Made by a program: the position numbers and the translations under genes
Assembly (NCBI GenBank): GCA_021735655.1
Contig: JAIPGM010000003.1
Location: 32,001-96,000, forward strand
Reading direction: 5' to 3'
DNA: 64,000 nt
Source of the DNA: Candidatus Omnitrophota bacterium
GTDB lineage: Bacteria; Omnitrophota; Gorgyraeia; Duberdicusellales; 4484-171
In this document: positions 13,062-44,967 of the stretch, in pieces
Numbering within the stretch: position 1 is the first letter of the stretch
Layout of the letters: every line of letters starts with the position of its first letter
Notes under the pieces: model-generated
Database searches by the model: none
Seen by the model: only the letters and a program-made list of their open reading frames with translations
What the model was told of the DNA's origin: nothing

Positions 13062-14018
13062 TTGTGCAGAGCGAATAAATTTATGAGAAATAAAATTAAT
13101 TTTTTAAAGGGATATGTCAAAAGGTATGTAGTTGCTGCATATAAACGACAGAAGTTACAGGCAGGTGAGTTTCCCCCCCAGCTATGGATAGAGAATACCA
13201 ATCATTGTAATGCAGCGTGTGTCATGTGTCCTCGTGATAAGCATAATCGGTCGCTTGGTTTTATGGAGTTTTCCCTTTTTGAACGTCTGATTAAGGAAAT
13301 AGCTGTACATAAAAATAATGTTTCAGCTGTTCATATGCATAATTATGGCGAACCGCTTATGGATAAAGAATTAATCAAAAAAGTAAAACTAGCTAAGGAT
13401 TATGGGATAAAACATGTTTATTTTGTTACCAACGCAGCATTGTTGACTAGTGATTTATCAGAAAAGCTAATAGCCTCAGGGCTTGATCAATTTAAAATAA
13501 GTTTTTATGGAACCGATAGACAAACATATAACGCTACAATGAGAGGGCTTGATTTTGATCAAACAATGTCTAATGTTAAGCAATTTTTCCAAATACGAAA
13601 GAAGATGAAGTCCCTTCAACCTAAAGTTATAATTCAATACCTTCCTCAGTCTCACAACAAGGCAGAAATTAGCAAATTTAAAAGTATTTTTGATTCCATG
13701 ATTGATTCTAAATTAGGCGATAGGTTGAATATTTATTCTTTGTTGAATTTCGGGGAAGGGAGAAGTTATAATAACTTTGCCAGAAGAATAGTTAGTTCAA
13801 TATGCAATTATCCGTGGAGGACTATGGTGGTATTGCATGATGGCCGGGTTACGGCTTGCTGTATGGATTATAATGGGGTTTTATCTATGGGAAATGTTAC
13901 TCAGAGCACTATAAAGCAAATATGGAATAACCAAACTTATAAAAAAATCAGAGAGGATTTTAAAAAGCTTGATTACAAAGAATACCAGGTTTGTAGAAAT
14001 TGTGATCTTATTTTTTAG
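13062..14018 (+). CDS. Radical SAM enzyme with SPASM-like C-terminal cysteine cluster
   Basis: CNAACVMCPRD carries the CxxxCxxC 4Fe-4S/SAM motif. Additional C-terminal cysteines (ACCMDYNG ... CRNCD) are consistent with an auxiliary-cluster (SPASM/twitch) domain. Confidence 0.65.
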   Translation: MCRANKFMRNKINFLKGYVKRYVVAAYKRQKLQAGEFPPQLWIENTNHCNAACVMCPRDKHNRSLGFMEFSLFERLIKEIAVHKNNVSAVHMHNYGEPLMDKELIKKVKLAKDYGIKHVYFVTNAALLTSDLSEKLIASGLDQFKISFYGTDRQTYNATMRGLDFDQTMSNVKQFFQIRKKMKSLQPKVIIQYLPQSHNKAEISKFKSIFDSMIDSKLGDRLNIYSLLNFGEGRSYNNFARRIVSSICNYPWRTMVVLHDGRVTACCMDYNGVLSMGNVTQSTIKQIWNNQTYKKIREDFKKLDYKEYQVCRNCDLIF

Positions 14019-21343: not shown

Positions 21344-21480
21344 CTTATGACAAGAAACAATTATAGGAGTTATATATTTTTATTTGATGTTTATTGTTTT
21401 ATTGTTGCCGCTATATATGTAGGGTGGAGAATATTTATTTTTCTAAAAAGATATTTTTAGGATACTGTTTAATCAATAAA

Positions 21481-23127
21481 ATGTTATCGAAAAAGACAAA
21501 TTCCTTTAGTAGCTTTTCAAACCTGCTTCATTTACCTAGTTTTGCATTGATCATAGGCTATATAATTTATTGGTTTGAGATATATTTTTTTAAAAAAGGC
21601 CAAGGTTTAAGCTCACCATTAGCTACCTGTTTGCTTGCCGTTCTTGCTATATATTTATTTTTCGGACAAAGAAAGCTATTTTTCTCAGCAGTTGATTGGT
21701 GCATTAAGGAATATAAACAAGAGAGTAAAATAAGAAAAGCCGTAATATTGCTGGCTTGTTGTATTGTCTTTTTAATACTGTTGACTACATTTTTTGCACT
21801 TTTACTACCGCCGCATCTAGCTCAGGAGTTTGATGCCTTGAATTATCATTTGACGCTTCCTCGGCAGCATTTGATTTTAGGTTCCTTTTCGCATATTCAC
21901 TGGTCTGCGGCCGATTTATTTCCTTTGCCGATACAGTTTGCGCTGGCTCCCTATTGGCTAATTAAGGAGATTCCTAGTAAGTTTATCCATATATTGTTTG
22001 TTTTTGGGTTATTAGCGATTTCTTTAAATCTTATAAGGTGTTTTAGCAACAACAATTTTTTGTCTTTATTTATCGGATTAATGGCTATCTTGGGTTCTCA
22101 TAATGTGGGCATACAAATTCCGATTCTGATGCTTGATATTGTTATATGTTATCTATTTTTAGCTAGTATTGATAGTTTTTTAGAGGGAAAAATTATCCTC
22201 GGGTCTATAGAGTTATCTTTCTTTATATGGTCAAAGTCTTTTGTCCCATTTCAAATGTTGGCAATTTTAACTATAATTTTTCTGATCGGATTACTTTTGA
22301 AAAAGCTTGGGGCCAATAATAGAAGTTGGGTTTTTGAAAAAACTTCTTACGATAAGTTACTCTCCAGAAAATATCTTAAGAAGAGTGTATTGTATCTATT
22401 TCTATCTAGTATGCTTGTCGGCGGACCTTTTATGGCTAAGTCGCTACTTAAGTCAGGAACGCCCTTGTTTCCTTTTTCTCCCGGTCTTCTAAAGACATCT
22501 TCAGTTGACCAAAAAACACCGCATTGGCGATCAATCGTAGCTTCTTCAGAAAGGCATTTTTCCACCAAAGATGCTTATGGATCAGGAAGGTCAATATTAG
22601 AATTCTTACGGCATCTATGGCTTATAGCTGTGCCCGAAGATCAGACTACAAATCGTTACGACTACCCCCTCGGTTTGCCTTATTTACTTTTTCTTGCCCC
22701 TTTTATTTACTTTGTTTTTATATCTTTTAAAAAGAAACAGCTTGTTTTGTTACCTTTATTTGCAGTTAGTTTTTGGATGCTTTGGTGGTTTGGTTCCCAG
22801 CAAGCCAGGTTTCTTTATATTCCTTTATTGATTATTTTTATCAGTGTGGCGGCTAAAATAAAACAACCAAGAAATTCATTTATTTACGCCTTAGTTATCG
22901 CATTACTCTTTAATTTTATATCTATTTTTAGAGCTCACTCAGGTGATCTCTTCAAGCCTTCAGTAAAGGTGTTGCGAACCAAAGACAAACAGCTGATAGA
23001 AATGAATAAAAAGTATCGTGATAGATCTAGTTTGAGTCCAGTAGTTTTAGATTATTATGATGTTGCTTATGCCAATTTTCCTTTAAAGATTGTTGGCAAA
23101 AACCGTTTTTGGGTTTTAGAGGAGTAG
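21481..23127 (+). CDS. Polytopic membrane protein, candidate GT-C-like glycosyltransferase or polymerase (hypothetical)
   Basis: At least 10 predicted hydrophobic helices. The first extracytoplasmic loop has an acidic motif (EFDALNYH). The start is reassigned to the ATG at 21481, in frame with the track start at 21394; a 135-bp intergenic precedes it. Confidence 0.4.
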   Translation: MLSKKTNSFSSFSNLLHLPSFALIIGYIIYWFEIYFFKKGQGLSSPLATCLLAVLAIYLFFGQRKLFFSAVDWCIKEYKQESKIRKAVILLACCIVFLILLTTFFALLLPPHLAQEFDALNYHLTLPRQHLILGSFSHIHWSAADLFPLPIQFALAPYWLIKEIPSKFIHILFVFGLLAISLNLIRCFSNNNFLSLFIGLMAILGSHNVGIQIPILMLDIVICYLFLASIDSFLEGKIILGSIELSFFIWSKSFVPFQMLAILTIIFLIGLLLKKLGANNRSWVFEKTSYDKLLSRKYLKKSVLYLFLSSMLVGGPFMAKSLLKSGTPLFPFSPGLLKTSSVDQKTPHWRSIVASSERHFSTKDAYGSGRSILEFLRHLWLIAVPEDQTTNRYDYPLGLPYLLFLAPFIYFVFISFKKKQLVLLPLFAVSFWMLWWFGSQQARFLYIPLLIIFISVAAKIKQPRNSFIYALVIALLFNFISIFRAHSGDLFKPSVKVLRTKDKQLIEMNKKYRDRSSLSPVVLDYYDVAYANFPLKIVGKNRFWVLEE

Positions 23128-23990: not shown

Positions 23991-24776
23991 ATGAAAGCAG
24001 TAATATTATGTGGAGGAAGAGGGACAAGAATTAGAGATGCCTCAGAAGTTTTACCTAAGTCAATGCTTCCGGTGGGCAATATGCCCTTGCTTTGGCATAT
24101 AATGAAAATTTACGCTCATTATGGGATAAAAGATTTCGTTTTATGCCTTGGTTATAAAGGGTGGGCGATAAAAGAGTTTTTTTTAAATTATCAAGCTAAG
24201 GTTTTTGATGTAGTGTTGAAGTTAGATAAAGAAAATTCAATAATTTATGGCCAAAACCATCATGAAAAGTTAGATTGGAAAATCTCGCTTGTAGAAACAG
24301 GCGAAGAATCACAAACCGGAGCAAGAATTTGGAATGCACGCAAATATTTAGAAGATTGTGATATGTTTTGTGTAACTTATGGTGACGGTGTTGGCAATAT
24401 CGACATCAAATCTTTAATAGAAGTTCATAAAAAATCGGGTTTACTTGGCACAATAACTGGAGTTCATCCTTCAGGCCGTTTTGGCGAAATAGAGACAAAA
24501 GGTAAGATTATTTCTTCTTTCGCAGAGAAGCCAAATGTAAGCTTTGGTTCTTATAATGGCGGGTTTATGGTTTTTGATAGAAAAGTTTTAGGAAAATATT
24601 TTAGATCTGGAAAAGATTTGATATTGGAGGCAGAAACTTTGCCTAATATGGTGAATGACAAGCAGTTAGGAATATATGAGCATAATGGTTTTTGGCAATG
24701 TGTTGACACTAATCGGGAATTAGAAATATTGGAGGGTTTATGGAATTCTTCTAATCCTCCTTGGAAAGTATGGTGA
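23991..24776 (+). CDS. rfbF: Glucose-1-phosphate cytidylyltransferase
   Basis: MKAVILCGGRGTRIRDASEVLPKSMLPVGNMPLLWHIMKIYAHYGIKDFVLCLGYKGWAIKEFF is highly similar to the RfbF/DdhA N-terminus (AVILAGGLGTRL...KPILWHIMKIYS). It is followed by a 4,6-dehydratase and the E1 dehydrase. Confidence 0.85.
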   Translation: MKAVILCGGRGTRIRDASEVLPKSMLPVGNMPLLWHIMKIYAHYGIKDFVLCLGYKGWAIKEFFLNYQAKVFDVVLKLDKENSIIYGQNHHEKLDWKISLVETGEESQTGARIWNARKYLEDCDMFCVTYGDGVGNIDIKSLIEVHKKSGLLGTITGVHPSGRFGEIETKGKIISSFAEKPNVSFGSYNGGFMVFDRKVLGKYFRSGKDLILEAETLPNMVNDKQLGIYEHNGFWQCVDTNRELEILEGLWNSSNPPWKVW

Positions 24777-25753
24777 ATACGCAAGTAAAATTTTGGAAAG
24801 GCAAAAGAGTCTTGATTACGGGCTATGAAGGATTCTTAGGATCTAATCTTGCTAAAGTTCTGCTAAACTTTGGTGCAAAGATATCGGGTTTGGATATTTT
24901 GACTAGAAGAAAAGATACAATCCTTACTCAAAAAGAATTAGCCAAGATAAAGATAATTAAAGGAAATGTTGATAATTTATCTTTAGTAAAGAGGATTTTA
25001 AGGAATGATAAAATAGAGGTTATTTTTCATCTCGCTGCAGAGGCTTTAGTTGGCGAGTGTCTAAAAAGACCAGTCAAAGGATTTTCGACCAATATTAAGG
25101 GAACTTGGAATATTTTAGAAGCTTGGCGGCAAACAAAAATAGCCAAAGCAATAGTTGTAGCTTCAAGCGATAAAGCCTACGGAAGTCATTCTAAGCTTCC
25201 TTATAAAGAAGATAGTGCGCTTTGCGGTTTGCATCCCTATGATGTTTCGAAGTCATGTGCTGACTTAATTGCTCATGCTTATCATAATACCTATGGAGCG
25301 CCGGTAGTGATAACTCGCTGTGGTAACATTTTTGGTCCGGGAGACTTCAATTTTTCCAGAATTGTTCCTGAAACCTTACGTTCGGTAATTAGAAATAAAA
25401 CTTTGGTTATTCGTAGTGATGGAAAGTTCACTCGTGATTATGTATATGTTGATGATATTGTAGCCGGATATATAAACTTAGCTCAAAAATCTAAAAAGTT
25501 AAAACTATTTGGCCAGGCTTTTAATTTTAGCGCCGAGCAGCCGCTTTCAGTTTTAGCTTTGGTAAAGTTGATTTATAAATTAGCTGACAGAAGATCTAAC
25601 TATAAAATCTTAAAACAGGCGAAATATGAAATTAAGCATCAATATCTTTCATCTAGGAAGGCTGCTAGAGTTCTTGGCTGGAAACCAAAGCTGAAGCTAG
25701 ATAAGGCTTTGGAGAAAACTTACCAGTGGTATAAAGATAATCTAAGCAAATGA
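24761..25753 (+). CDS. rfbG: CDP-glucose 4,6-dehydratase
   Basis: Extended SDR with VLITGYEGFLGSNL and YDVSKSCADL (YxxxK). Its position immediately after rfbF fits the assignment. Confidence 0.75.
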   Translation: MESMVNTQVKFWKGKRVLITGYEGFLGSNLAKVLLNFGAKISGLDILTRRKDTILTQKELAKIKIIKGNVDNLSLVKRILRNDKIEVIFHLAAEALVGECLKRPVKGFSTNIKGTWNILEAWRQTKIAKAIVVASSDKAYGSHSKLPYKEDSALCGLHPYDVSKSCADLIAHAYHNTYGAPVVITRCGNIFGPGDFNFSRIVPETLRSVIRNKTLVIRSDGKFTRDYVYVDDIVAGYINLAQKSKKLKLFGQAFNFSAEQPLSVLALVKLIYKLADRRSNYKILKQAKYEIKHQYLSSRKAARVLGWKPKLKLDKALEKTYQWYKDNLSK

Positions 25754-26490
25754 AGATAAATTTTTTAGGAACAAATGGATGGTACGATACTGATACCGGA
25801 AATACTCTTTGTATTCTTATTGAAACTAAAAAAGAATATATTATTCTCGATGCCGGAGGCGGTTTTTACAAAATTGGTCAATATATAAAGAAAAAGAAGC
25901 CAATTTATCTTTTCTTAAGCCATTTTCATCTCGACCACATTATTGGACTTCATACCTTATTGCTAGGTAACTTTTCTCAGGGGATTAAGCTTTACGGACC
26001 ACCGGGAGTAAAGAAATACTTATCACAAATAGTAAATTATCCTTATACAGCGCCAATTTCTAAGTTAAAAACAAAGGTTATCGTTAATCAAATTAAAAAA
26101 GAAGTACGTTTTCCTTTTAAGGTTGAGTTTGGCAAGCTGCTTCATCCTTCATTATGTTACGGCTATCGGTTTAATTTGGAAGGCAAAACAATTGTTTATT
26201 GCACCGATACCGGAATTTGCAGTAATTTATATAAGTTAGCTAGGGATTCTGATTTATTTATTACTGAATGCTCGGCGACTGCCGGAAAAAAGGAAAAGGA
26301 TTGGCCTCATTTAACGGCTCAGGATGCAGCTAAGGTTGCTAAGAAATCCCAAGTAAAAAAATTATTTTTAGTTCATTTTAATGCTTCCTTATTTAAAACT
26401 GAAAAGCAACGCAATATGGCTAAGGCACAAGCAAAAGAGATATTTGGGAATACTTTTGCGGCCAGTGACGGACAAGTAGTTAATTTATAA
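25750..26490 (+). CDS. MBL-fold metallo-hydrolase (RNase Z/PhnP-like fold)
   Basis: LSHFHLDHIIGL (HxHxDH) and downstream His/Asp ligands. Embedded in the CDP-sugar module. Confidence 0.6.
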   Translation: MKINFLGTNGWYDTDTGNTLCILIETKKEYIILDAGGGFYKIGQYIKKKKPIYLFLSHFHLDHIIGLHTLLLGNFSQGIKLYGPPGVKKYLSQIVNYPYTAPISKLKTKVIVNQIKKEVRFPFKVEFGKLLHPSLCYGYRFNLEGKTIVYCTDTGICSNLYKLARDSDLFITECSATAGKKEKDWPHLTAQDAAKVAKKSQVKKLFLVHFNASLFKTEKQRNMAKAQAKEIFGNTFAASDGQVVNL

Positions 26491-26501
26491 AGCTTTAAAT
26501 A

Positions 26502-27386
26502 ATGAAGAAAACACCCGTAGCTATAATTGGTACTGGAAATATTGGTACTGATCTTTTAATTAAGATCCAGCGTTCGTCAATTTTAGAATGTGTTCTTTTT
26601 ACTGGCCGGCGTCTAGATTCACGGGGCATGCAAAGAGCAAGGTTGCTTGGCGTACCCATTTCCGATCAATCAATAAAAGCCATTCAGAGAAATCATAATA
26701 TTTGCGATATAGTCTTTGACGCAACCTCAGCTAAAGCTCATCAATATCACGCACCAATTTTAAAGAAATTAGGTAAGATCGCTATAGACTTAACGCCTTC
26801 AAAAGTTGGCAAGATGTGTATACCGGTTATTAACATGAACCAATGTTTAGATGAAAATAATGTGAATTTGGTTACTTGCGGCGGTCAAGCAGCTATTCCA
26901 ATAGCTCATGCAATTATGAGGGTGCATCCGGAGACCGAATATATAGAAGTTGTAGCAAGTATTGCTTCTAAATCCGCGGGCCTTGGGACTAGAGATAATA
27001 TTGATGAGTTTACTCAGACTACCGGTGATGCTATTTTAAATTTTACCGGAGTTCCTCGGGCAAAGGCAATTATTATTTTAAATCCGGCTGAACCACCAGT
27101 TTTAATGCACAATACCATTTATGCCCAGATTACTAAGCCAAAGATCAAAAAAATGACTGCGGCAATAAATGATATTGTTAACAAGGTTCAAAAATATGTT
27201 CCTGGTTATAAAGTAACTGTGGGTCCAGTGGCCGAGGGCAATCGGGTAACGGTTATGATTGAGGTGGTGGGTTTGGGCGATTTTCTTCCTAAATATTCCG
27301 GCAACTTAGATATTATTACCTGCGCTGCTGTGAATATTGCGGAAAGTTTTGCTCAAAAAAAGATAAGAGGCAAAGTGCCTTTATGA
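26502..27386 (+). CDS. Acetaldehyde dehydrogenase (acylating), DmpF/MhpF family
   Basis: VAIIGTGNIGTDLLIKI, DIVFDATSAKAH and IDLTPSKVGKMCIPVINM with the catalytic Cys align closely with MhpF (VAIIGSGNIGTDLMIKI...DIVFDATSAGAH...IDLTPAAIGPYCVPVVN). Confidence 0.75.
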   Translation: MKKTPVAIIGTGNIGTDLLIKIQRSSILECVLFTGRRLDSRGMQRARLLGVPISDQSIKAIQRNHNICDIVFDATSAKAHQYHAPILKKLGKIAIDLTPSKVGKMCIPVINMNQCLDENNVNLVTCGGQAAIPIAHAIMRVHPETEYIEVVASIASKSAGLGTRDNIDEFTQTTGDAILNFTGVPRAKAIIILNPAEPPVLMHNTIYAQITKPKIKKMTAAINDIVNKVQKYVPGYKVTVGPVAEGNRVTVMIEVVGLGDFLPKYSGNLDIITCAAVNIAESFAQKKIRGKVPL

Positions 27387-28435
27387 AAAAAAGGAAAAAG
27401 ATTTTATTCTTTGATTCTACTTTGCGCGATGGGTCTCATGCAATTAGCCATCAGCTGAAAGCTTCCCAGATTAAGCAATATTGTAAGTATGCAGATGACT
27501 CAGGGTTACATACAATTATTGTCGGCCATGGAAATGGTCTAAGTGCCTCATCTTTGCAGGTAGGGTTGTCGGCTCTTTCTGATACAGAGATGATTGTAAC
27601 TGCTCGCAAGAATCTTAAAGCTACGAAATTGGGAGTTTTTTTGATTCCTGGTTTTGGTACAATTAAGGATGATCTTGCTCCGGCAATTGATCAAGGGGTT
27701 GATTTAGTTTGTGTTGCTTCTCATTGTACCGAGGCTAATGTTACTCGTCAACATATCGAATACGTAAGAAAACGAGGCAAAGCCGCTTATGGGGTTTTAA
27801 TGATGCAGCATATGGCTTCAGCCGAACGTTTATCCGAAGAAGCTCACAAAATGCAAGATTATGGCGCATTGGGTGTTATTTTAATGGATTCTGCCGGAGC
27901 TTCTCATCCGGAGATGGTTTCAGAGCGGGTTGGCCTACTAGTTAAGAATCTTGATTGTCAAGTTGGATTCCATGCTCATAATAATTTAGGTTTAGCGATT
28001 GCTAATTCATACAGTGCAATTAAAGCTGGGGCTACAATTATTGATGGAACAGTTAGGGGTTTTGGGGCTGGGGCCGGGAATTGTCAAATTGAAGTTTTAG
28101 CAGGATTGCTCTATAAAATTGGCGTAAAGACAGGTCTAGATTTATATAAATTGATGGATGTTGGTGATGAAGTAGTAACTAAATTGAGTGAGAAATCTCA
28201 AGGTGTGAGCTCAATTAGCCTAATTAGCGGAATAACTGGGGTTTTTTCGGGTTTTTCTAAACATGTTGAGAAAGCAGCTAAGCGATTTGGCGTTGATCCG
28301 CGAGATATTTTTATGGAGTTAGGAAAAAGAAAAATGGTAGCCGGGCAGGAAGATTATATTGTTGACGTGGCAATGTATTTAGCTCAGAAGAAAACTGGCC
28401 AGAAAGACAGCTATCAGATAGAATCACTTTCTTAA
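27383..28435 (+). CDS. 4-hydroxy-2-oxovalerate aldolase-like (DmpG/MhpE family, DRE-TIM metallolyase)
   Basis: DSTLRDGSHAISHQ (DxxLRDG), FHAHNNLGLAIANSYSAIKAGATIIDGTVRGFGAGAGN and ELGKRKMVAGQEDYIVDVA match the MhpE/DmpG catalytic and communication-domain motifs. Confidence 0.75.
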   Translation: MKKRKKILFFDSTLRDGSHAISHQLKASQIKQYCKYADDSGLHTIIVGHGNGLSASSLQVGLSALSDTEMIVTARKNLKATKLGVFLIPGFGTIKDDLAPAIDQGVDLVCVASHCTEANVTRQHIEYVRKRGKAAYGVLMMQHMASAERLSEEAHKMQDYGALGVILMDSAGASHPEMVSERVGLLVKNLDCQVGFHAHNNLGLAIANSYSAIKAGATIIDGTVRGFGAGAGNCQIEVLAGLLYKIGVKTGLDLYKLMDVGDEVVTKLSEKSQGVSSISLISGITGVFSGFSKHVEKAAKRFGVDPRDIFMELGKRKMVAGQEDYIVDVAMYLAQKKTGQKDSYQIESLS

Positions 28436-28448
28436 TAAGGAGTAGACA

Positions 28449-30230
28449 ATGAGAGTGGCCGATTACATTTTTAATTTTTTAGTCGATAAAGGCGTAAGAA
28501 ATGTTTTTATGGTTTCCGGCGGCCAAGCTATGTTTTTGGTTGATGCTGTTGGACGTCAAAAAGAAATAGAAGTTGTTTGTACACATCATGAACAGGCAGC
28601 TGGGATGGCAGCTGAAGCTTATGGGCGAGTAACTCAAAAATTAGGAGTAGCTTTAGTTACTGCCGGGCCGGGCAGTATGAATATTGTAAATGCGGTAGCC
28701 GGAGGCTGGACAGATTCATCACCAATGATGGTTATTTCCGGCCAATCATCTTTATCATATGTACAGTATCAAGAAGAAACTAATATTCGACAGTATGGAA
28801 TTCAAGGAATTTACATTAAGCCAATAGTTCAGAATATTACTAAGTATTTTGTTACTGTTGATGATCCAGCAAAAATTTTATTTTATCTTCAAAAAGCTTA
28901 TTATTATGCAACTACTGGGCGTCCTGGCCCGGTTTGGATCGATGTTCCGATTGATGTGCAAAAGATGGAGGTTCCCGATCGCTTATTAGAAGAGTTTGAA
29001 CCACCGCTTGAGGCTTATCTTCCCGATGAGCTAACAGATAGTGTTGAGCTGTTATTGACGACAATTTCCAAAGCTAAGCGGCCAATATTTTTAGTTGGCC
29101 AGGGTGTTCGCTTGGGCGGTGCGGTTGATCAGTTTTATCAAGTTCTTGAAAGATTAGCGATTCCGGTATTAACCTCGCGTCTGGGAATAGATTTAATTAA
29201 TAGTGATCATCGTCTTTATGTCGGTCGTCCAGGAATTTATGGTGAGCGAGCAGCTAACTTTGCAATTCAGAATGCTGATGTTATAGTGGCTGTTGGCTCG
29301 CGCTTAGCAACAGCATTAGTTGGCTATGATTCTAAAAACTTTGGTAAACAGGCTTATAAAATAGCTGTTGATATTGATAAAAAAGAGCTAAATAAGATCG
29401 GCGTTGAAATAAATTTGCGAATTCATGCTGATGTAAAAGATTTTTTTAAAGAAATCCAGCGGCAGCTAGTTTCGGTTTCAGTTGGCGATTTTAGTCAATG
29501 GATTAAACAATGTAATGATTGGAAAAAGAACTATCCGGTAGTTTTGCCGTCTTATGAGAAGGAGAAACCAGTCAATTCTTATTATTTTACTGAAAAGCTA
29601 TCTCAGGTTACACCTTCTGAGGTAATGGTTTTGGTTGATACTGGTTCTTGTTTTCATGTGGCTTGTCAGGCTTGGAAGATTAAAACCGGGCAACGTTTTC
29701 TTACTACTGGGGGTCTTTCTTCGATGGGTTATTGGGCTGCAGTTTTGGGGGTTTGCGAGGCCAACAATCGAAAGAATACGATTGTTATTACCGGTGATGG
29801 TAGCTTACAGATGAATTTACAGGAATTAGCAACAATTAAACATTACAATTTTCCGATTAAAGTTATTATTTTCAATAACAACGGTTATCTTTTAATAAGG
29901 CATACACAGAAGAACTACATGAATAGTCGTTTTTGCGGTGAAGGGCCGGATAGCGGTGTTTGGTGTCCGGATTCTTTAAGGATAGCCGAGGCCTATGGGA
30001 TTAAAGGTGTCCGCATAGATTCAGTTAAAGGGCTTAGTGAAAAAATTAAAGAAGTAATTGAATATCCCGGCCCGGTGGTTTGCGATGTAATGACTCCTGA
30101 GTGGCAATTACTTATTCCTCGAGTTTCTTCAGAAAAAAAGCCCGATGGAACATTGGTTTCAAAACCCTATGAAGATATGTACCCGTTTTTGAGTAAAAAA
30201 GAATTAAAACAAAACATGCTTTTTGAATAA
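28449..30230 (+). CDS. Thiamine-diphosphate-dependent enzyme of the acetolactate-synthase-large-subunit family (YerE-like candidate C-C branching enzyme)
   Basis: N-terminal Pyr domain (VFMVSGGQAMFLVDA...THHEQAAGMAAEAYGR). ThDP-binding GDG-X24-NN motif ITGDGSLQMNLQELATIKHYNFPIKVIIFNNNGY. Confidence 0.7.
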   Translation: MRVADYIFNFLVDKGVRNVFMVSGGQAMFLVDAVGRQKEIEVVCTHHEQAAGMAAEAYGRVTQKLGVALVTAGPGSMNIVNAVAGGWTDSSPMMVISGQSSLSYVQYQEETNIRQYGIQGIYIKPIVQNITKYFVTVDDPAKILFYLQKAYYYATTGRPGPVWIDVPIDVQKMEVPDRLLEEFEPPLEAYLPDELTDSVELLLTTISKAKRPIFLVGQGVRLGGAVDQFYQVLERLAIPVLTSRLGIDLINSDHRLYVGRPGIYGERAANFAIQNADVIVAVGSRLATALVGYDSKNFGKQAYKIAVDIDKKELNKIGVEINLRIHADVKDFFKEIQRQLVSVSVGDFSQWIKQCNDWKKNYPVVLPSYEKEKPVNSYYFTEKLSQVTPSEVMVLVDTGSCFHVACQAWKIKTGQRFLTTGGLSSMGYWAAVLGVCEANNRKNTIVITGDGSLQMNLQELATIKHYNFPIKVIIFNNNGYLLIRHTQKNYMNSRFCGEGPDSGVWCPDSLRIAEAYGIKGVRIDSVKGLSEKIKEVIEYPGPVVCDVMTPEWQLLIPRVSSEKKPDGTLVSKPYEDMYPFLSKKELKQNMLFE

Positions 30231-31188
30231 TAAAGGACAAATTTTGATTAAGAAAAAAAACGTACTAGTTACTGGTGCTCGTGGATTCATTGGAAAAAAT
30301 ATTGTTGAACATTTCAAAGCTAACCTTTCAAACAATTATACTGTTTTTTCTCCCTATCATAATGAGTTAGAACTGCTTGATTCTCAAGTGGTTATTTCGT
30401 TTATTAAGAGTAAATCAATAGATCTTATTATTCATTGTGCTAATATTGGGGGATCACGTAAAACTGCCTACGATCAAGATCGTACTGATGTGGTATATAA
30501 AAATTTAGCGATGTTTTTTAATCTAGTCGGTGCAATGAATAAAGACACTCGAATGGTATTTTTTGGTAGCGGCGCAGAGTATGCCAGAGCCTATTATAAG
30601 CCCAAGATGAAAGAAGATTATTTCGATGAACACATACCGGAAGATAGCTACGGTTTTTCAAAATACGTATGTTCTAAGTATATAGAAAGTTCTGAGAAAA
30701 TAGTAAATTTGCGTCTTTTCGGAGTTTTTGGAAAGCACGAAGATTATGAGTTTAAATTTATATCTAATGCTATTGTTAAAAATTTATTAGGTTTACCAAT
30801 CACCATAAATCAAAATATTTATTTTGATTATTTGTATATAAACGATTTTTTAAAGATAGTTGAGTATTTTATAGATAAAATGCCTAAACAAAAGTTTTAT
30901 AACGCTGCTAGAGGCCAAACAATTGACTTGGTAACGATAGCTAAAGAAATTAATAAAGTTTCCGAAAAGCAGTCGGAGATAATTGTTAAACATGAAGGTT
31001 TGAATACCGAGTATAGTGCCGATAATTCAAGACTTTTAAAAGAAATCGGTAATTTTGACTTTACTCCTTTTGACCAAGCAATAAAGGAGTTGTATCTTTG
31101 GTATAAATCTAATTTGAATAAAATTAATAAAGCCAAAATTACCAAAGATGAATATATTAAGTATTGTCACATAGATAGCCAACAGTAA
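30223..31188 (+). CDS. NAD(P)-dependent sugar epimerase/reductase (extended SDR; possible 4-ketoreductase of the branched dideoxy pathway)
   Basis: VLVTGARGFIGKNI Rossmann motif and YGFSKYVCSK (YxxxK). Confidence 0.65.
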   Translation: MNNKGQILIKKKNVLVTGARGFIGKNIVEHFKANLSNNYTVFSPYHNELELLDSQVVISFIKSKSIDLIIHCANIGGSRKTAYDQDRTDVVYKNLAMFFNLVGAMNKDTRMVFFGSGAEYARAYYKPKMKEDYFDEHIPEDSYGFSKYVCSKYIESSEKIVNLRLFGVFGKHEDYEFKFISNAIVKNLLGLPITINQNIYFDYLYINDFLKIVEYFIDKMPKQKFYNAARGQTIDLVTIAKEINKVSEKQSEIIVKHEGLNTEYSADNSRLLKEIGNFDFTPFDQAIKELYLWYKSNLNKINKAKITKDEYIKYCHIDSQQ

Positions 31189-32498
31189 TGAATAACCAGA
31201 AGTTATTGCGAAAACAAATCCTTAAAAAGGTGAAGGACTTTCAAGTCAAAAGTCCAAAGTCTAAATTTGTTCCCGGCGAAACTTATATTAACTATGCTGG
31301 GCGTATTTTTGACCATGAAGAACTCATCAATTCAGTTGATGCTTCTTTAGATTTTTGGTTAACTTCTGGACGATTCGCTTGTGAGTTTGAGAAGGAGTTA
31401 GCAAGATTTTTAGGAATTAAACATTGCATGTTAACAAATTCCGGTTCTTCGGCCAATCTTTTAGCTATTTCAGCGTTAAAGTCACCGTTATTAAAGAAAC
31501 GAAGTTTGAAGGCAGGCGATGAAGTTATTACCACTGCTTGCGGATTCCCGACAACTTTAAATCCAATTTTACAAAATAATCTTGTTCCGGTTTTTGTTGA
31601 TTTGGAGTTGGGTACCTATAATATTGATGTTACTAAAATAGAGCGAGCAATTTCTAAGAAAACAAAGGCTATTTTTGTTGCTCATACCTTAGGTAACCCG
31701 GTTGAACTAGATGCAATTATGAAAATAGTTAAAAAGCATAATTTATTTTTTATCGAAGATAATTGCGACAGTCTAGGTTCTAAATATAATGATAAATATA
31801 CCGGCAGTTTTGGTCAAATTTCAACTTGTAGTTTTTATGCCAGCCATCATATCACTATGGGAGAGGGCGGAGCGGTTTTAACCAATGACCCTTTACTTCG
31901 CAAGATAATTCTTTCTTTACGCGATTGGGGCCGTGATTGTTTTTGTGAACCAGGCCGGGATAATAGTTGTGGTAAGCGGTTTTCTAAAAAGCAGGGTAAG
32001 CTCCCCTTAGGGTATGATCACAAGTATATATATTCACATATTGGTTATAATTTAAAAATTACTGATATGCAGGCAGCAATTGGTTTAGCACAACTTAAGA
32101 AACTTAAGAACTTTATTTCTATTCGCAGAAAAAACTTTGACTATCTTTATAAAAATTTATCACAATATGATAAGTATATTGCTTTTCCTAAAGTTAGCAA
32201 TAAGTCTAAGGTTAGCTGGTTTGGATTTCCTGTTTTGATAAAATCTGATGCGCCTTTTAAGCGGATTGAGCTAGTAAGGTACCTAGAGAAAAATAAAATT
32301 GCTACTCGTATGTTATTCGGAGGAAATTTAACTAAGCAACCGGCTTATCAAGGCATAAAATATAGAGTTTCCGGAAGCTTAAATAATACTAACTTAGTTA
32401 TGGACAATCTTTTTTGGATTGGTGTGTACCCAGGCATCACCAAAGATAAGCTTGATTATATAGCAAAAATATTCTCATACTTTTTTAAGAAATTATGA
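31188..32498 (+). CDS. rfbH: CDP-6-deoxy-D-xylo-4-hexulose 3-dehydrase (E1; DdhC/RfbH)
   Basis: DegT-fold protein of 436 aa in which the PLP-lysine position reads SFYASHHITMGEGG. The replacement of Lys by His is the hallmark of E1 PMP-dependent dehydrases. The other three DegT paralogues in this window keep the Lys (SFNGNK, SFYANK, SFYPGK). A CFCEPGRDNSCGKRF cysteine cluster is consistent with the E1 [2Fe-2S] site. Confidence 0.8.
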   Translation: MNNQKLLRKQILKKVKDFQVKSPKSKFVPGETYINYAGRIFDHEELINSVDASLDFWLTSGRFACEFEKELARFLGIKHCMLTNSGSSANLLAISALKSPLLKKRSLKAGDEVITTACGFPTTLNPILQNNLVPVFVDLELGTYNIDVTKIERAISKKTKAIFVAHTLGNPVELDAIMKIVKKHNLFFIEDNCDSLGSKYNDKYTGSFGQISTCSFYASHHITMGEGGAVLTNDPLLRKIILSLRDWGRDCFCEPGRDNSCGKRFSKKQGKLPLGYDHKYIYSHIGYNLKITDMQAAIGLAQLKKLKNFISIRRKNFDYLYKNLSQYDKYIAFPKVSNKSKVSWFGFPVLIKSDAPFKRIELVRYLEKNKIATRMLFGGNLTKQPAYQGIKYRVSGSLNNTNLVMDNLFWIGVYPGITKDKLDYIAKIFSYFFKKL

Positions 32499-33199
32499 AG
32501 CTTTCGGTAATCATAACTTGCTTTAATGAGAAGGCTACTATCCTGGCAGCCATAGAGGAAGCCAGGCAGTTAGATATCGATAAAGAGATAATTGTTATTG
32601 ATAATTGCTCTAGTGATGGCACGAAACAGATTCTAGAAGGGTTAGGCGATAAAACTTTACAGATTGTATTTCAACCTAAGAATTTTGGTGTCGGGCAATC
32701 AGTTAAGCTTGGTGTTGAAATGGCAACCGGCGATTGTTGTTATAGCCCTTGCGCTGATTTAGAGTATAGGATGAATGATGTTTTTAAAATGATTAAAAAA
32801 ATGGAGCAAAATAATTTAGATGCTGTTTTTGGGTCGCGTATTGCTGATAGAAAGAATATTTCAAAATTAGTAATTATTAAAGAAAGACCATACTATGCCG
32901 CAACAATCGTGGCAACGTATCTTATCAATAAGTGGTATGGAAGAAATTTCACGGATATTATTGCTCCGAAGCTTATTAAAGCAGATATTTTTAAAAAACT
33001 AGCTATTAGTTCTAACGGCCAAGCTTTTGAGTTTGAGTTAGTCAGCAGGTTGTGTGAAGTTGGTTGTAGAATAGCTGAAGTGCCTATTTATTATAAGCCT
33101 CGGTCAGCAAAGCAAGGTAAAACTATTAAGCCTTGGGATTTTATTCCTGCTTTGTTAGCTATGATTAAAGTGAGGCTATCTAGAAAAAATAAATCATGA
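32495..33199 (+). CDS. Family 2 glycosyltransferase (DPM1-like)
   Basis: LSVIITCFNEKATILAAIEEARQLDIDKEIIVIDNCSSDGT. Confidence 0.75.
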   Translation: MKLSVIITCFNEKATILAAIEEARQLDIDKEIIVIDNCSSDGTKQILEGLGDKTLQIVFQPKNFGVGQSVKLGVEMATGDCCYSPCADLEYRMNDVFKMIKKMEQNNLDAVFGSRIADRKNISKLVIIKERPYYAATIVATYLINKWYGRNFTDIIAPKLIKADIFKKLAISSNGQAFEFELVSRLCEVGCRIAEVPIYYKPRSAKQGKTIKPWDFIPALLAMIKVRLSRKNKS

Positions 33200-34611
33200 T
33201 TCATTCTTCGAGAAAAATCTATCCTTTTTATATTTTAACTGATGTGTTTTTTATCGTTTTAAGTTTTTTTATACCTTACCTGTTAAAGTATGGCTCTTCG
33301 CAGATATCCTCTAGTTTAAATATTAAACTGCCGAATTTTGAAGAATATGTAGTGATATTTATACTTTGGGGTTTATTTATAATTATTACCTTAAATCGAA
33401 AAGGTTTCTACGCTACTGATCGCTCGCTGAGTATTCCTAAAGAAGCTTTCCGAGTATCAATAAATATTTTATATGTTAGTATTTTTGTGGCCGGATTGAT
33501 ATTTTTTACTAAGTATCAGTTTTTCTCTCGTGAAATATTCTTTAGCAACTTTGTTTTGCTTTGTGTCTTGTTATCTGGATGGAGAGCGCTTAAAAGATTA
33601 GTTTTACGAAAGTTAATATCTCAGGGATTCAAAAATGTAAATGTTTTAATTGTCGGCGCTGGAAAGATTGGTGAGAGTATTGCTGCAGAAATTTACAAAA
33701 ATCCTTATTGGGGATTTAAAATTTCAGGATTTCTTGATGATAGTAAAGTCAAGGCAGTTAGCGACTTACCGATTTTGGGAACCCTGAGTAACTTTATTTC
33801 TGTGGCCAAGAAGTACTTTATTGATGAAGTAATTATATCTATTCCTTCGGAAAGGAAAGCTGTTTCAGAACTAATCAAACAGGCCCAGAAGATGAACTTG
33901 GGTTTAAGAATCATTCCTGATAGTTTTGAAGAACCGCTTCCGGTGGTAGAGATAACTAATCTTGGGTTAATTCCTTTACTTACTTATAAAGAGAGGAAGC
34001 ACCATCCGGCAGAGTTTGCTTTAAAGCGGTTATTTGATATTTTAGTGTCTTTAATTTTGCTGATTTTATTGTTACCGGTTTTTTTAATAGTTTCAATATT
34101 AATAAAAATAGATTCAAAAGGTCCGGTTTTTTATATTCGTAAGCGCTCTGGTTTTAAAGGGAAAATATTTAGTTTTTATAAATTTCGCTCTATGGGTCAA
34201 GACGCCGATAAGCAAAAAGCCGATCTTTTGAGTAAAAATGAATCTAAAGGCAACCTTATTTTTAAGATGAAAAAAGATCCGCGAGTTACTTCGGTAGGTA
34301 AGTTTTTGCGCCGCTATAGCCTAGATGAATTACCTCAAATATTTAATGTTTTAAAGGGTGATATGAGTTTGGTTGGGCCGCGGCCTTTTCCGGTAGAAGA
34401 AAGCGATAAATTTCAGTATGAACATCTCCAGCGGTTGACGGTGCGCCCGGGAATAACCGGTTTAGCCCAGATTAGAGGCCGTTCAGACCTTTCGGTTTAC
34501 CGTTGGATTAAATGGGACCTTTGGTATGTGAACAACTGGTCTTTTCGGCTGGATTTTTTGATTCTTTGGTGGACAATTCCAGTAGTTTTAAAAGGAAGAG
34601 GAGCCTATTAA
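33196..34611 (+). CDS. Undecaprenyl-phosphate hexose-1-phosphate transferase (WbaP/CpsE bacterial sugar transferase family; initiating enzyme)
   Basis: N-terminal TM helices, a central Rossmann-like VLIVGAGKIGE, and the C-terminal catalytic domain KFRSMGQDAD...PRVTSVGKFLRRYSLDELPQIFNVLKGDMSLVGPRP. Confidence 0.8.
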   Translation: MIHSSRKIYPFYILTDVFFIVLSFFIPYLLKYGSSQISSSLNIKLPNFEEYVVIFILWGLFIIITLNRKGFYATDRSLSIPKEAFRVSINILYVSIFVAGLIFFTKYQFFSREIFFSNFVLLCVLLSGWRALKRLVLRKLISQGFKNVNVLIVGAGKIGESIAAEIYKNPYWGFKISGFLDDSKVKAVSDLPILGTLSNFISVAKKYFIDEVIISIPSERKAVSELIKQAQKMNLGLRIIPDSFEEPLPVVEITNLGLIPLLTYKERKHHPAEFALKRLFDILVSLILLILLLPVFLIVSILIKIDSKGPVFYIRKRSGFKGKIFSFYKFRSMGQDADKQKADLLSKNESKGNLIFKMKKDPRVTSVGKFLRRYSLDELPQIFNVLKGDMSLVGPRPFPVEESDKFQYEHLQRLTVRPGITGLAQIRGRSDLSVYRWIKWDLWYVNNWSFRLDFLILWWTIPVVLKGRGAY

Positions 34612-34693: not shown

Positions 34694-35140
34694 ATGCGTC
34701 AGGTGATGAATTTTGTTAAGGCTAATATTGGAGAATTTGGGTTTAGAACTTTAATAAGCTTAATTTTACTAGCTGTCGGATTAGTTTTTGTAGTTTTTGC
34801 AATAAAGAAAATACCGAGCTTAGGGAGAGGTTTTTTTCTTGTTGGACTAACAGCTGTTAGTTTATTATTAGTTTGGCAGATAGAGATAGCTGAGGAAAAA
34901 ATTCATTTATTTGAGTTTGCAGTTTTAGGTTGGCTAGCTTTTAAAGATACTTGGAGTAAAGATAAAAAATCTAAAGGAGTTATTTTAGCTTTAGTTTTTA
35001 CCTTTGCTGTGGGCGTTCTAGATGAAGGATTTCAGGCGGTACTACCCTATCGTTATTTTCAAGGCTGGGATATTTTTTTGAATTGTTTAGGGGGTCTTTG
35101 GGGGGTGCTGTCATTTTTAATTTTCAGAGGCGCAAGATGA
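34694..35140 (+). CDS. VanZ-like small membrane protein
   Basis: Four hydrophobic segments and a GVLDEGFQAVLPYRYFQGWDIFLNCLGGLWG pattern typical of VanZ. Confidence 0.5.
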   Translation: MRQVMNFVKANIGEFGFRTLISLILLAVGLVFVVFAIKKIPSLGRGFFLVGLTAVSLLLVWQIEIAEEKIHLFEFAVLGWLAFKDTWSKDKKSKGVILALVFTFAVGVLDEGFQAVLPYRYFQGWDIFLNCLGGLWGVLSFLIFRGAR

Positions 35141-42618: not shown

Positions 42619-43071
42619 ATGAAAGAACGCATAGAACATAAAGGTGAACTTTTAGGCCTTATTATAAGAGGAGACTATAATCCTTCTCAGACTGAGTTTT
42701 TTACACCTAATGAATTTAAGCAACAGGTTGGATATATATTTTACGATACCGGTCAGGAGGTGGCAGCTCATATTCATCATAATATGCCGCGTAGCCTTGA
42801 GGGTACTTCTGAAGTTTTAATTCTTAAAACCGGCCATGCCCGGATTGATTTTTATTCTCAAGATAAACAATATTTAGAAAGCCGGGAGATATTTCCCGGT
42901 GATATTATTATTTTAGTTTTTGGTGGGCATGGTATTCATTTTTATGAACCAAGTTTACTTCTGGAAATAAAACAAGGTCCTTATATCGGAGTTCAGGAAA
43001 AGGAAAGGTTTCCCTCGGCTTACCCAGAGCAAGAAAAGCTAAAGAAGGATGGTGAACCATTATCCCCGTAA
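42619..43071 (+). CDS. Cupin-fold protein (possible NDP-sugar ketoisomerase, FdtA/QdtA-like)
   Basis: 150 aa with a VAAHIHHNMP...E and ...VFGGHGIHF two-motif cupin signature. It lies immediately upstream of a DegT aminotransferase, the arrangement seen for 3,4-ketoisomerase/transaminase pairs. Confidence 0.4.
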   Translation: MKERIEHKGELLGLIIRGDYNPSQTEFFTPNEFKQQVGYIFYDTGQEVAAHIHHNMPRSLEGTSEVLILKTGHARIDFYSQDKQYLESREIFPGDIIILVFGGHGIHFYEPSLLLEIKQGPYIGVQEKERFPSAYPEQEKLKKDGEPLSP

Positions 43072-43079: not shown

Positions 43080-44222
43080 TTGCTGCCGGGCAATGAATTA
43101 AAGTACGTTTCCGAGTGTCTTAAGACTAATTGGATTTCTTCTTCTGGCAGTTTTCTTGAGCGTTTCGAATCCGAATGGGCAAAGTATTGCGGTCAAAAAT
43201 ATGGTATTGCTGTTTGTAACGGAACGGTTGCTTTAGAGTTAGCTGTAGATGCTTGCAATTTTCCTAAGGGAAGTGAAATAATTCTACCTAGTTTTACTAT
43301 TATTTCTTGCGTCCAGGCGGTTACTAAAGCTGGTTGTAAGCCAGTGCTTGTTGATTGTGATTCGGAAACTTACTGTATGCAAGTAAGCCGGATAGAAGCA
43401 AAAATTACTGACCGGACCGTGGCAATTATGCCGGTACATATGTACGGACATCCAGTTGAAATGAAGCCAATAATGGACATTGCTCAGAAACACGGTCTTG
43501 TTGTTATTGAAGATGTGGCTCAGACCCAGGGAGGTGAATATCGAGGAAAAAAATGCGGTAGTTTTGGTAAGCTTTCCTGTTTTTCATTCTATGCAAATAA
43601 AAATATAACTACTGGCGAAGGAGGTATGGTTTTAACCTCTGATACTGTAATTGCTCAACGTTTGCGTAAGCTCAAAAATCTTTGTTTTTTAAAATCACCA
43701 AGATTTTTGCATTACCGGCTAGGCTATAACTATCGAATGACTAATATCCAAGCTGCTTTAGGCTTAGCCCAATTAGAGAATATCGATAGGTTCATTGAAC
43801 GTAAAATTGACATGGCCAAAAAGTATTCGCAGGCCTTAGTAAATTTACCGCTTCAATTACCTATGGAGCATAAATGGGCCAAGAATGTTATTTGGATGTA
43901 TAATGTGCTCCTTAAGGAAGATAAACAAAGCCAGGAGTTTTTTGAAAAAGACTGGAAAAATATAAGTCCAGAAGAGTATTTTAGATGGCCGGCATACAAG
44001 CTAATGAAAGTTTTAGAGCAGGCTGGAGTACAAACTCGTCCCTTTTTTATTGGAATGCATGAGCAGCCTGTGTTTCATGAGCAGGGGCTGTTTAAGGGTG
44101 AGAGATACCCGGTTACTGAAAAAATTGCTCGTTCTGGTTTTTATCTTCCTAGTGGCCAAGCGATAACTGATTTTCAGATAGATGAAGTTTCGCGAGCTTT
44201 AAAGGAGATATTTAATGAATAA
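43080..44222 (+). CDS. DegT/DnrJ/EryC1 family PLP-dependent aminotransferase (ArnB-like)
   Basis: CNGTVALELAV, DVAQTQG, and SFYANKNITTGEGG with the PLP Lys. Apparent TTG start at 43080. Confidence 0.75.
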   Translation: MLPGNELKYVSECLKTNWISSSGSFLERFESEWAKYCGQKYGIAVCNGTVALELAVDACNFPKGSEIILPSFTIISCVQAVTKAGCKPVLVDCDSETYCMQVSRIEAKITDRTVAIMPVHMYGHPVEMKPIMDIAQKHGLVVIEDVAQTQGGEYRGKKCGSFGKLSCFSFYANKNITTGEGGMVLTSDTVIAQRLRKLKNLCFLKSPRFLHYRLGYNYRMTNIQAALGLAQLENIDRFIERKIDMAKKYSQALVNLPLQLPMEHKWAKNVIWMYNVLLKEDKQSQEFFEKDWKNISPEEYFRWPAYKLMKVLEQAGVQTRPFFIGMHEQPVFHEQGLFKGERYPVTEKIARSGFYLPSGQAITDFQIDEVSRALKEIFNE

Positions 44223-44967
44223 ACATTTATCACTTTCAGTAATTTTGCCTACTTACGATGAGGCTGAAAATATAAGACCTTTGATAGAAAGCATAGCTGA
44301 GGCCACTGAGCATCTTCAGGAAATAATAGTTGTTGATGATGATTCTCCTGATGGGACGGCTGATGTTGTTGAAGATATGATCGAAAGCGGAAAATACCCT
44401 TTTCTAAAACTGGAAAGAAGGCTTAAAAACCCTAGCTTAAGAAATAGTATTTGGAGAGGCATAGAGCTAGCTAGCGGAGATACTGTTGGCTGGATGGATT
44501 GCGATTTTTCCATGCCACCTAGATACTTTCCGGTACTTCTATCTTTAGTAAATGCAGATTATGATATAGCTTTAGGTTCTCGTTTTGTTTTAGGGGGTAC
44601 TTGGAGAGAAGAAACTTTGGAGGATTCAGATACGATTTTAGCGGCTTCAGGTAGCAGGCTGATGAATTTTTTTATTCAGATTTTTCTTGACCACAGAGTT
44701 AGGGATTATACCAGTGGTTTTGTAGTTGCCCGGCGCGATATTTTTAAACGGATTAAATTAAGGGGTGATTATGGTGAGTATTTCATTGATTTTATATATC
44801 GGGCCTTAAAGTTAAGGTATCGGGTGGTTGAAATTCCCTATGTTTGGGCTTCCAGAAGAAGGGGATATTCTAAAACAGGTAATAACCTTAAGGATTATTT
44901 TAAGCGAGGAAGAAAGTATATAGCTACAGTCTTGCGTTTGTTGCTTACGCGAAATTATGAATATTAA
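44215..44967 (+). CDS. GT2 polyprenyl-phosphate sugar transferase (ArnC/DPM1-like)
   Basis: LSVILPTYDEAENIRPLIESIAEATEHLQEIIVVDDDSPDGT. The short soluble GT2 form is typical of Und-P/Dol-P sugar synthases. Confidence 0.65.
   Translation: MNKHLSLSVILPTYDEAENIRPLIESIAEATEHLQEIIVVDDDSPDGTADVVEDMIESGKYPFLKLERRLKNPSLRNSIWRGIELASGDTVGWMDCDFSMPPRYFPVLLSLVNADYDIALGSRFVLGGTWREETLEDSDTILAASGSRLMNFFIQIFLDHRVRDYTSGFVVARRDIFKRIKLRGDYGEYFIDFIYRALKLRYRVVEIPYVWASRRRGYSKTGNNLKDYFKRGRKYIATVLRLLLTRNYEY

Follow-up and report, generated by a model that had tools for sequence, protein, structure and literature searches.

An E1-type 3-dehydrase without a linked E3 reductase in a predicted branched-sugar cassette of an uncultured Omnitrophota bacterium

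Introduction

How is an E1-type sugar 3-dehydrase reduced when no gene for its textbook partner, the E3 reductase, is found at its locus, and what sugar would such an enzyme help to make? These questions are raised by a 64-kb stretch of DNA from an uncultured Candidatus Omnitrophota bacterium (contig JAIPGM010000003.1), which we call, at its full length, the window and to which all positions below refer unless another locus is named. The open reading frame (ORF) at 31188–32498 on the forward strand encodes an E1/RfbH/DdhC-type cytidine diphosphate (CDP)-4-keto-6-deoxyglucose 3-dehydrase, an enzyme of the pyridoxamine 5′-phosphate (PMP) and [2Fe-2S] type (hereafter, the window E1). Here we describe its family membership and catalytic residues, the search for an E3 reductase in the window and at related loci, and the gene cassette that the E1 gene closes. 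The explanation that we consider likely as a whole is that of a functional E1 that draws on a generic electron donor and contributes to a branched-sugar product.

Results

The window E1 has the catalytic residues of its family

The window E1 ORF is intact and full length and encodes 436 residues. It matches the NCBIfam RfbH equivalog model NF011936 with 694.2 bits against a cut-off of 423, residues 3–434 being covered, and the second-ranked NCBIfam model, an aminotransferase, follows at 195 bits. The top solved relative is the Yersinia pseudotuberculosis E1 (PDB 3bcx; E = 2.7e-156, 524 bits), to which the window E1 is 53.4% identical over 429 residues with the same residue numbering; its identity to Salmonella RfbH is 53.6%. 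NCBI already holds an identical protein from a Candidatus Omnitrophica metagenome-assembled genome (MAG) under the name “lipopolysaccharide biosynthesis protein RfbH”. The window E1 is an ordinary member of a known family, and its public annotation name is already correct. On these matches the ORF almost certainly encodes an E1/RfbH/DdhC orthologue, a CDP-6-deoxy-L-threo-D-glycero-4-hexulose 3-dehydrase. A first-pass annotation of the window had read the protein as the PMP-dependent 3-dehydrase E1. Both the model score and the structure ranking, in which ColD structures form the second-best PDB group (214 bits, 2.9e-62), agree with that assignment: the protein is an E1-type PMP/[2Fe-2S] 3-dehydrase, neither an aminotransferase nor ColD.

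The window encodes exactly four DegT-fold proteins (Pfam PF01041, DegT_DnrJ_EryC1): those at 5182–6381, 43080–44222 and 50572–51693 and the window E1, for which the domain was taken from precomputed Pfam on the identical protein P0001. It had been proposed that only the E1 among the four lacks the Lys motif that binds pyridoxal 5′-phosphate (PLP), and that a His stands in its place. An alignment of the four proteins bears this out, as the paralogues carry SFNGNK, SFYANK and SFYPGK, with the Lys opposite the first His of an HH pair in the E1. This residue, His220, is encoded by the codon at 31845–31847 on the forward strand, within bases 31830–31871, which translate to SFYASHHITMGEGG. His220 of the window E1 also aligns with His220 of the Yersinia E1 in 3bcx. 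A second structure, 3bb8, has one aligned difference from 3bcx, a Lys for His that falls opposite His220 of the window E1, and because this is the sole difference we regard 3bb8 as the H220K variant. His220 is kept in all 82 E1 sequences compared.

The Cys-rich stretch to which the first-pass annotation had also drawn attention is an insertion that the alignment places in the E1 and in none of the other three paralogues (bases 31938–31976 translate to CFCEPGRDNSCGK). The cysteines that the window E1 has in common with the Yersinia E1 are four, C193, C251, C253 and C261, with the same spacing, C-X57-C-X1-C-X7-C; the segment that holds these putative cluster ligands spans 31764–31970 on the forward strand. 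C251, C253 and C261 are conserved in 82 of 82 E1 sequences and C193 in 81. This spacing is reportedly the [2Fe-2S] motif described by Agnihotri et al. in 2004, and we take the four residues to be the ligands of the cluster. A four-Cys [2Fe-2S] motif is carried by E1 and SpnQ and not by ColD, while the replacement of the catalytic Lys by His occurs in E1-type enzymes and ColD alike (PMC8987622).

The latter point allows for a different chemistry, in which the window enzyme would act as ColD does, by dehydration and hydrolysis without any reductase, with PMP regenerated through transamination from glutamate. ColD has the same His for Lys and no need of a reductase (PMC8987622), and it is the runner-up among solved structures. 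We nonetheless judge a ColD-like mode to be highly improbable. The similarity to E1 is far greater than that to ColD (524 versus 214 bits), the four cluster cysteines that ColD is missing are present and essentially invariant in the E1 relatives, E1 itself gave no transaminase activity under such conditions (PMC8987622), and the genes next to that of the window E1 belong to the CDP-glucose rather than the guanosine diphosphate (GDP)-mannose type. The ColD-like mechanism was rejected on the conservation of the Fe-S ligands. Membership in the SpnQ family was also considered and rejected, as the context is one of CDP sugars, not deoxythymidine diphosphate (dTDP) sugars.

No E3 reductase is encoded in 74 kb around the window E1

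Every window ORF of at least 150 residues, and additionally ORF 34694–35140, was annotated with Pfam, and none of these ORFs carries a Fer2, FAD_binding_6 or NAD_binding_1 domain; a ferredoxin-NADP reductase (FNR)-like protein that lacks the Fer2 domain was likewise not found in the window. Our E3 query was Salmonella RfbI (324 residues), encoded in the unannotated interval that separates rfbC from rfbF in a Salmonella record of the plasmid collection (L082). With it, phmmer --max was run on every stop-to-stop segment of 40 or more residues in all six frames. RfbI recovers itself in the Salmonella locus at 752 bits, and neither the 64-kb window nor the 10-kb stretch that precedes it (Logan contig L001), which together make 74 kb of inspected sequence, gives a match at E ≤ 10. 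The strict 4Fe-4S ferredoxin motif C-x2-C-x2-C-x3-C-[PGA] occurs in neither of these two stretches. Over the ~41 kb that precede the E1 gene and the ~31.5 kb that follow it, no homologue of ddhD, ascD or rfbI is thus found. In the canonical order, ddhD/rfbI lies immediately upstream of ddhA/rfbF (Salmonella record; PMC5399914). In the window a gene for a WecG-family glycosyltransferase sits directly upstream of the ddhA-like gene, the place that ddhD occupies in Yersinia and Salmonella. The earlier statement that the locus has no E3 reductase therefore stands, and ddhD, which might have lain just outside the region first analysed, is not in the 10 kb upstream.

The nearest E1 relatives, too, usually lack a linked E3

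To place this absence, one genome per GTDB species was scanned with an E1 alignment, and the best 80 of at least 600 matched stretches were surveyed over 10 kb on each side of the E1 gene where the contig allows. These 80 nearest loci, at 53–70% identity, come from Patescibacteria, Omnitrophota, Elusimicrobia, Chloroflexota, Acidobacteriota, Planctomycetota, Paenibacillus, Sphingobium and other bacteria, as well as from the archaea Methanoregula, Methanobacteriaceae and Methanocellaceae. By phmmer with RfbI, a full E3 is encoded within 10 kb of none of the 80 E1 genes, and 77 loci contain nothing E3-like. The other three give weak matches (E 0.003–0.008), all in Bacteroidales and all immediately downstream of E1 (L068, 11870–12580; L074, 2320–3087; L064, 2033–2749). 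According to Pfam, these FNR-like proteins of ~240 residues have FAD_binding_8 and NAD_binding_1 domains and no ferredoxin domain; they are candidate truncated E3 proteins, with a possible direct role in reduction of the E1 cluster. A regular-expression screen of the 80 loci for plant-type Fer2 and FNR motifs also found none; it was superseded by the RfbI search and is not relied on here.

Plasmids of cultured bacteria gave a similar picture. No E3 lies within 10 kb at the plasmid rfbH loci of Methylovirgula, Desulfobaculum and Azospirillum, two of which also carry rfbF and rfbG. The E1-bearing plasmids with a linked E3-like gene are two Salmonella records and a Sphingomonas hengshuiensis plasmid (NZ_CP010837.1), wherein the E3-like gene is ~1.9 kb from rfbH. 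Clustering of all ORFs that neighbour the surveyed E1 genes revealed no widespread redox family other than short-chain dehydrogenases/reductases (SDRs).

The near invariance of His220 and of the Cys ligands across these E3-less loci indicates that the redox machinery inside E1 has been retained without a linked E3. A missing E3 is common to most of the nearest relatives of the window E1, and linkage to E3 characterizes the canonical operon, not the protein family. Complete genomes with E3-less E1 loci include OY969425.1 (L003), OY969786.1 (L037), Paenibacillus anaericanus DSM 15890, Sphingobium chungbukense DJ77 and Azospirillum sp. TSH100. The missing partner reported in the first-pass annotation is therefore real, but it is no peculiarity of this locus.

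The likely electron donor is a generic one

With no linked E3, a housekeeping ferredoxin or flavodoxin system is the likeliest source of the electrons, as it is for SpnQ. SpnQ works in vitro with ferredoxin/ferredoxin reductase or flavodoxin/flavodoxin reductase pairs, and not with E3 (PMC8987622). By this analogy, a generic donor is probably what serves the window E1, and the survey agrees with it, as does the earlier suggestion that the donor is either encoded elsewhere or generic.

The alternative closest to the textbook pathway is a dedicated E3, a DdhD/AscD/RfbI-type reductase with Fer2, flavin (FAD) and nicotinamide (NAD) domains, encoded at an unlinked site in the genome. E1 of Yersinia and Salmonella does work with a dedicated E3 (PMC8987622; PMC5399914), E3-like genes adjoin rfbH in some other bacteria, as in the Sphingomonas hengshuiensis plasmid above, and the sequence inspected here amounts to 74 kb of the genome. 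However, neither the 80 nearest E1 loci nor the three plasmid loci have a full E3 within 10 kb, and where E3 use is known it comes with linkage, ddhD being joined to the E1 gene in the ddhDABC module (PMC5399914). Moreover, the nearest E1 relatives belong to anaerobes, archaea and Patescibacteria, organisms that are rich in ferredoxins. Taken together, these data make an unlinked dedicated E3 possible but doubtful.

The E1 gene would not be alone in the locus in its dependence on an outside source of electrons. Two radical S-adenosylmethionine (SAM) enzymes are encoded in the glycan locus, at 13062–14018 and 44957–46396; a SPASM domain is present in one of them and a B12-binding domain in the other. 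Radical-SAM enzymes need a low-potential electron donor. In this they resemble E1, and no such donor is encoded in the locus.

The E1 gene closes an eight-gene cassette

The window E1 gene is the last of eight co-directional genes (23991–32498), all on the forward strand. The first encodes a DdhA/RfbF-like glucose-1-phosphate cytidylyltransferase (23991–24776; TIGR02623, 292.8 bits, cut-off 300.25) that is 42% identical to Salmonella RfbF and has a homologue at 60 of the 80 related E1 loci. The second product is a DdhB/RfbG-like SDR of the CDP-glucose 4,6-dehydratase type (24761–25753; TIGR02622, 220 bits, cut-off 278), 30% identical to Salmonella RfbG, and homologues that are 56–62% identical to it occupy the same position at Omnitrophota and Elusimicrobia E1 loci. 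These best model matches and the synteny suggest that the cassette is specific for CDP sugars. Next come an acetylating acetaldehyde dehydrogenase of the DmpF/BphJ/ErwJ type (26502–27386; TIGR03215, 399.6 bits, cut-off 282) and a 4-hydroxy-2-oxovalerate (pyruvate) aldolase of the DmpG/BphI/ErwI type (27383–28435; TIGR03217, 383.6 bits, cut-off 286; Pfam HMGL-like plus DmpG_comm). Homologues of this pair are found at three to four of the 80 related loci.

The aldolase gene is followed by one for a YerE/ErwE-like carboligase dependent on thiamine diphosphate (ThDP) (28449–30230), which has all three TPP_enzyme domains. Its top PDB match is 8rph at 420 bits, and acetolactate synthases reach at most 254 bits. 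The 8rph structure is that of JanthE, a YerE-like enzyme (PMC12188165). A YerE-like ThDP homologue accompanies E1 at 33–34 of the 80 loci. Between the carboligase and E1 genes lies that of an extended SDR (30223–31188; Pfam Epimerase), a reductase or epimerase that may be an ErwF/YerF-like side-chain ketoreductase; in L003, L009 and L026, homologues with 45–60% identity to it adjoin the gene for E1 or that for the ThDP enzyme.

The remaining member of the cassette is a metallo-β-lactamase (MBL)-fold hydrolase (25750–26490; Pfam Lactamase_B_2), the gene for which is inserted between those of the 4,6-dehydratase-like protein and the acetaldehyde dehydrogenase. It is weakly similar to RNase Z and phosphodiesterase models and is related to RNase Z, PhnP and phosphodiesterases. 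Homologues at 47–61% identity adjoin DdhB at five related E1 loci (L003, L004, L007, L011 and L016).

Two forward-strand genes follow the E1 gene, one for a GT2 glycosyltransferase (32495–33199; Pfam Glycos_transf_2) and one for an initiating polyprenyl-phosphate glycosyl-1-phosphate transferase (33196–34611; TIGR03025, 434.5 bits, cut-off 295.6; Pfam Bac_transf). The SDR stop and E1 start codons share bases (TAATG), as do the E1 stop and GT2 start codons (ATGA), so that E1 is translationally coupled to both neighbours.

Cassettes that combine E1, the ThDP enzyme and a BphI-like aldolase also occur in MAGs of Elusimicrobia (L004, 55–11311), Methanoregula (L009, 132–11305), Methanocellaceae (L053, 347–11128) and Mariprofundaceae (L076, 8065–17252). 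The BphJ-like dehydrogenase was detected in L004, L009 and L076 and not in L053, and over the stretch examined all four are devoid of E3-like genes. It would be surprising to find branched octoses in archaeal glycans.

These observations bear on two further explanations. One holds that the window E1 is a decaying, non-functional remnant left after loss of its partner, for which the sole support is the absence of E3. The gene is intact, all catalytic and cluster residues are conserved, it is translationally coupled on both sides, and other phyla, as well as archaea, have kept the cassette in this E3-less form. That the gene is a remnant is thus scarcely credible, and a pseudogene reading was rejected on the grounds that the gene is intact, coupled and syntenic.

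The other holds that a protein of the locus which is not an E3 donates the electrons, the candidates being the FAD-type ThDP enzyme, the acetaldehyde dehydrogenase by way of NADH, the MBL-fold protein and a Gfo/Idh/MocA oxidoreductase (48967–49974). All are encoded near E1, and the MBL-fold gene recurs at five related loci. In addition, YerE has been described as a flavoprotein, and ThDP enzymes of the pyruvate oxidase kind can pass electrons to FAD. Yet no candidate keeps consistent company with E1 (ThDP enzyme, 33–34 of 80 loci; MBL, 5 of 80; DmpF/DmpG, 3–4 of 80), the neighbour clustering gave no widespread redox family besides SDRs, and the candidates have no recognizable Fe-S or ferredoxin-docking domain. 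We therefore regard a local donor as very unlikely, and continue to favour a generic donor encoded outside the locus.

The cassette resembles the erwiniose pathway

The gene content of the cassette matches that of the erwiniose cluster of Pectobacterium atrosepticum, a correspondence absent from the first-pass annotation. In that cluster the BphJ-like ErwJ and the BphI-like ErwI make 4-hydroxy-2-oxopentanoate (PMC9306805, Steitz et al. 2022), which the ThDP enzyme ErwE adds to CDP-4-keto-3,6-dideoxy-D-glucose before ErwF reduces the branch (PMC9306805). The window dehydrogenase and aldolase are assigned their putative roles by analogy with ErwJ and ErwI (PMC9306805). On this analogy, the product of the window E1 is likely destined for an erwiniose-type branched octose and is probably not converted to a simple 3,6-dideoxyhexose. 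The role of E1 here would be to supply the keto-sugar acceptor for the branched octose.

A pathway consistent with these data can be drawn, in which the E1 steps (Schiff base formation, proton abstraction and one-electron transfers) follow the literature (PMC8987622). The DdhA-like and DdhB-like enzymes, encoded 6–7 kb upstream, would make CDP-4-keto-6-deoxy-D-glucose, with which the PMP of E1 would form a Schiff base. His220, as acid/base in place of the aminotransferase Lys, would take the C4′ proton, allowing the 3-OH to depart. The resulting PMP-glucoseen intermediate would gain two electrons, one at a time, through the [2Fe-2S] cluster of E1 itself (Cys193/251/253/261), to give CDP-4-keto-3,6-dideoxy-D-glucose; the cluster would be fed by a housekeeping ferredoxin or flavodoxin system with its genes elsewhere. 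Meanwhile, the BphJ/BphI-like pair would convert acetyl-CoA and pyruvate to 4-hydroxy-2-oxopentanoate, and the YerE/ErwE-like ThDP enzyme would attach the C4 acyl branch derived from it at C-4 of the keto sugar. Reduction of the branch by the adjacent SDR would complete an erwiniose-type branched octose for a cell-surface polysaccharide.

The wider polysaccharide locus

All genes of the window are on the forward strand. The polysaccharide locus continues past the left end of the window and ends near 56.9 kb, after which come xseA, pnp, ftsK and a rodZ-like gene. At its left side (window 263–3087 together with L001 1–10000) are genes of the type used for nonulosonic acids (legionaminic or pseudaminic acid), among them those for NeuB, a 2-epimerase, a cytidine monophosphate (CMP) transferase and a PglD-like acetyltransferase, with no reductase in L001. 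Beyond them lie a HisF/HisH-like pair and a 399-residue, Cys-rich ORF without a Pfam match, an arrangement that resembles the amidotransferase sets that make acetamidino groups. At 7449–10025, genes for a CTP_transf_3 cytidylyltransferase, a 3-dehydroquinate synthase-like sugar-phosphate cyclase and an SDR adjoin one another, a set that is unusual for a surface-polysaccharide locus.

Near the other end, an ATP-sulfurylase gene (52800–53903) lies inside the locus, which hints at sulfated glycans; an ORF of 180 residues that is weakly similar to HpcH/HpaI aldolases follows it (53927–54469). ORFs 10092–12260 (722 residues), 14029–15828 (599), 21394–23127 (577) and 42619–43071 (150) have no significant Pfam match. 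With ~10 predicted membrane helices, the 577-residue ORF is a possible polymerase or flippase.

Discussion

Our data address how an E1 without a linked E3 may be reduced and what it may produce. By itself, the E1 finding matters little, as the enzyme is well studied, its public name is correct and SpnQ provides a precedent for a missing reductase. One modest point of wider use is that, in a sample of 80 genome loci and three plasmid loci, E3 is as a rule unlinked or absent. Since E3 is so rarely linked, annotation pipelines and models that require DdhD would under-call the 3,6-dideoxyhexose pathway outside Enterobacteria. On balance, we lean towards the view that the textbook E1/E3 pair is the exception, and that the window E1 is one of a very large population of E1 proteins, in anaerobic bacteria, Patescibacteria and methanogenic archaea, that never had a dedicated E3 and whose cluster is reduced directly by a housekeeping low-potential ferredoxin or flavodoxin, the window E1 feeding an erwiniose-type C4-branched octose pathway. 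The cassette itself predicts acyl-branched sugars of the erwiniose type in uncultured Omnitrophota, Elusimicrobia and methanogenic archaea, and brings new lineages within reach of the sequence-based prediction scheme that Steitz et al. 2022 (PMC9306805) put forward. If true, it would be the first erwiniose-type C4-branched octose pathway predicted for Omnitrophota, with counterparts in methanogens.

Three points weigh against this explanation. The absence of E3 extends over 74 kb, and the window covers 64 kb of a MAG contig of 278,835 bp. The DdhA-like and DdhB-like proteins both score under the equivalog cut-offs of their models (292.8 versus 300.25 and 220 versus 278 bits, respectively). Finally, the donor substrate proposed for the ThDP enzyme is suggested by its context, through the co-located aldolase/dehydrogenase pair.

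How, then, does the window system compare with those already known? With the E1 of Yersinia and Salmonella (DdhC/AscC/RfbH) the window E1 shares 53% identity over its full length, His220 and the Cys spacing, and, as in these bacteria, the operon-like run of E1 includes a cytidylyltransferase-type and a 4,6-dehydratase-type gene. It differs from them in that the window has no ddhD/rfbI/ascD partner gene and in that the predicted chemistry leads to a branched sugar, not to paratose, abequose, tyvelose or ascarylose.

SpnQ of Saccharopolyspora spinosa is also an E1-type enzyme with PMP, a [2Fe-2S] cluster and His for Lys, and has no dedicated E3 (PMC8987622). It appears to be the best functional analogy for the electron supply, a likeness drawn from its published description. 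Its substrate is thymidine diphosphate (TDP)-4-keto-2,6-dideoxyglucose in an actinomycete antibiotic pathway, whereas the neighbours of the window E1 are of the CDP-glucose type, and Pfam found no Nudix-type 2,3-dehydratase, which together with RmlA/RmlB and a 3-ketoreductase belongs to the SpnQ context, among the annotated window ORFs. Streptomyces rfbH-like genes are ~50–52% identical to the window E1. ColD, a GDP-4-keto-6-deoxymannose 3-dehydratase, shares the fold, the His for Lys and the PMP-dependent deoxygenation at C-3. Unlike the window E1, it has no Fe-S cluster, no need of a reductase and no Cys-rich insertion.

The nearest match for the cassette as a whole is found in the erwiniose cluster and in the yersiniose pathway of YerE and YerF, which, like the window, have genes for CDP-4-keto-3,6-dideoxyglucose. 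With the erwiniose cluster the window further shares the BphI-like aldolase, the BphJ-like dehydrogenase, the YerE-like carboligase and, in the SDR, a candidate for the NAD(P)H reductase, the two being likened by their described functions. The window cassette has no E3. What sets the window apart from the erwiniose cluster is its host, an uncultured Omnitrophota MAG, and the extra MBL-fold gene in its cassette.

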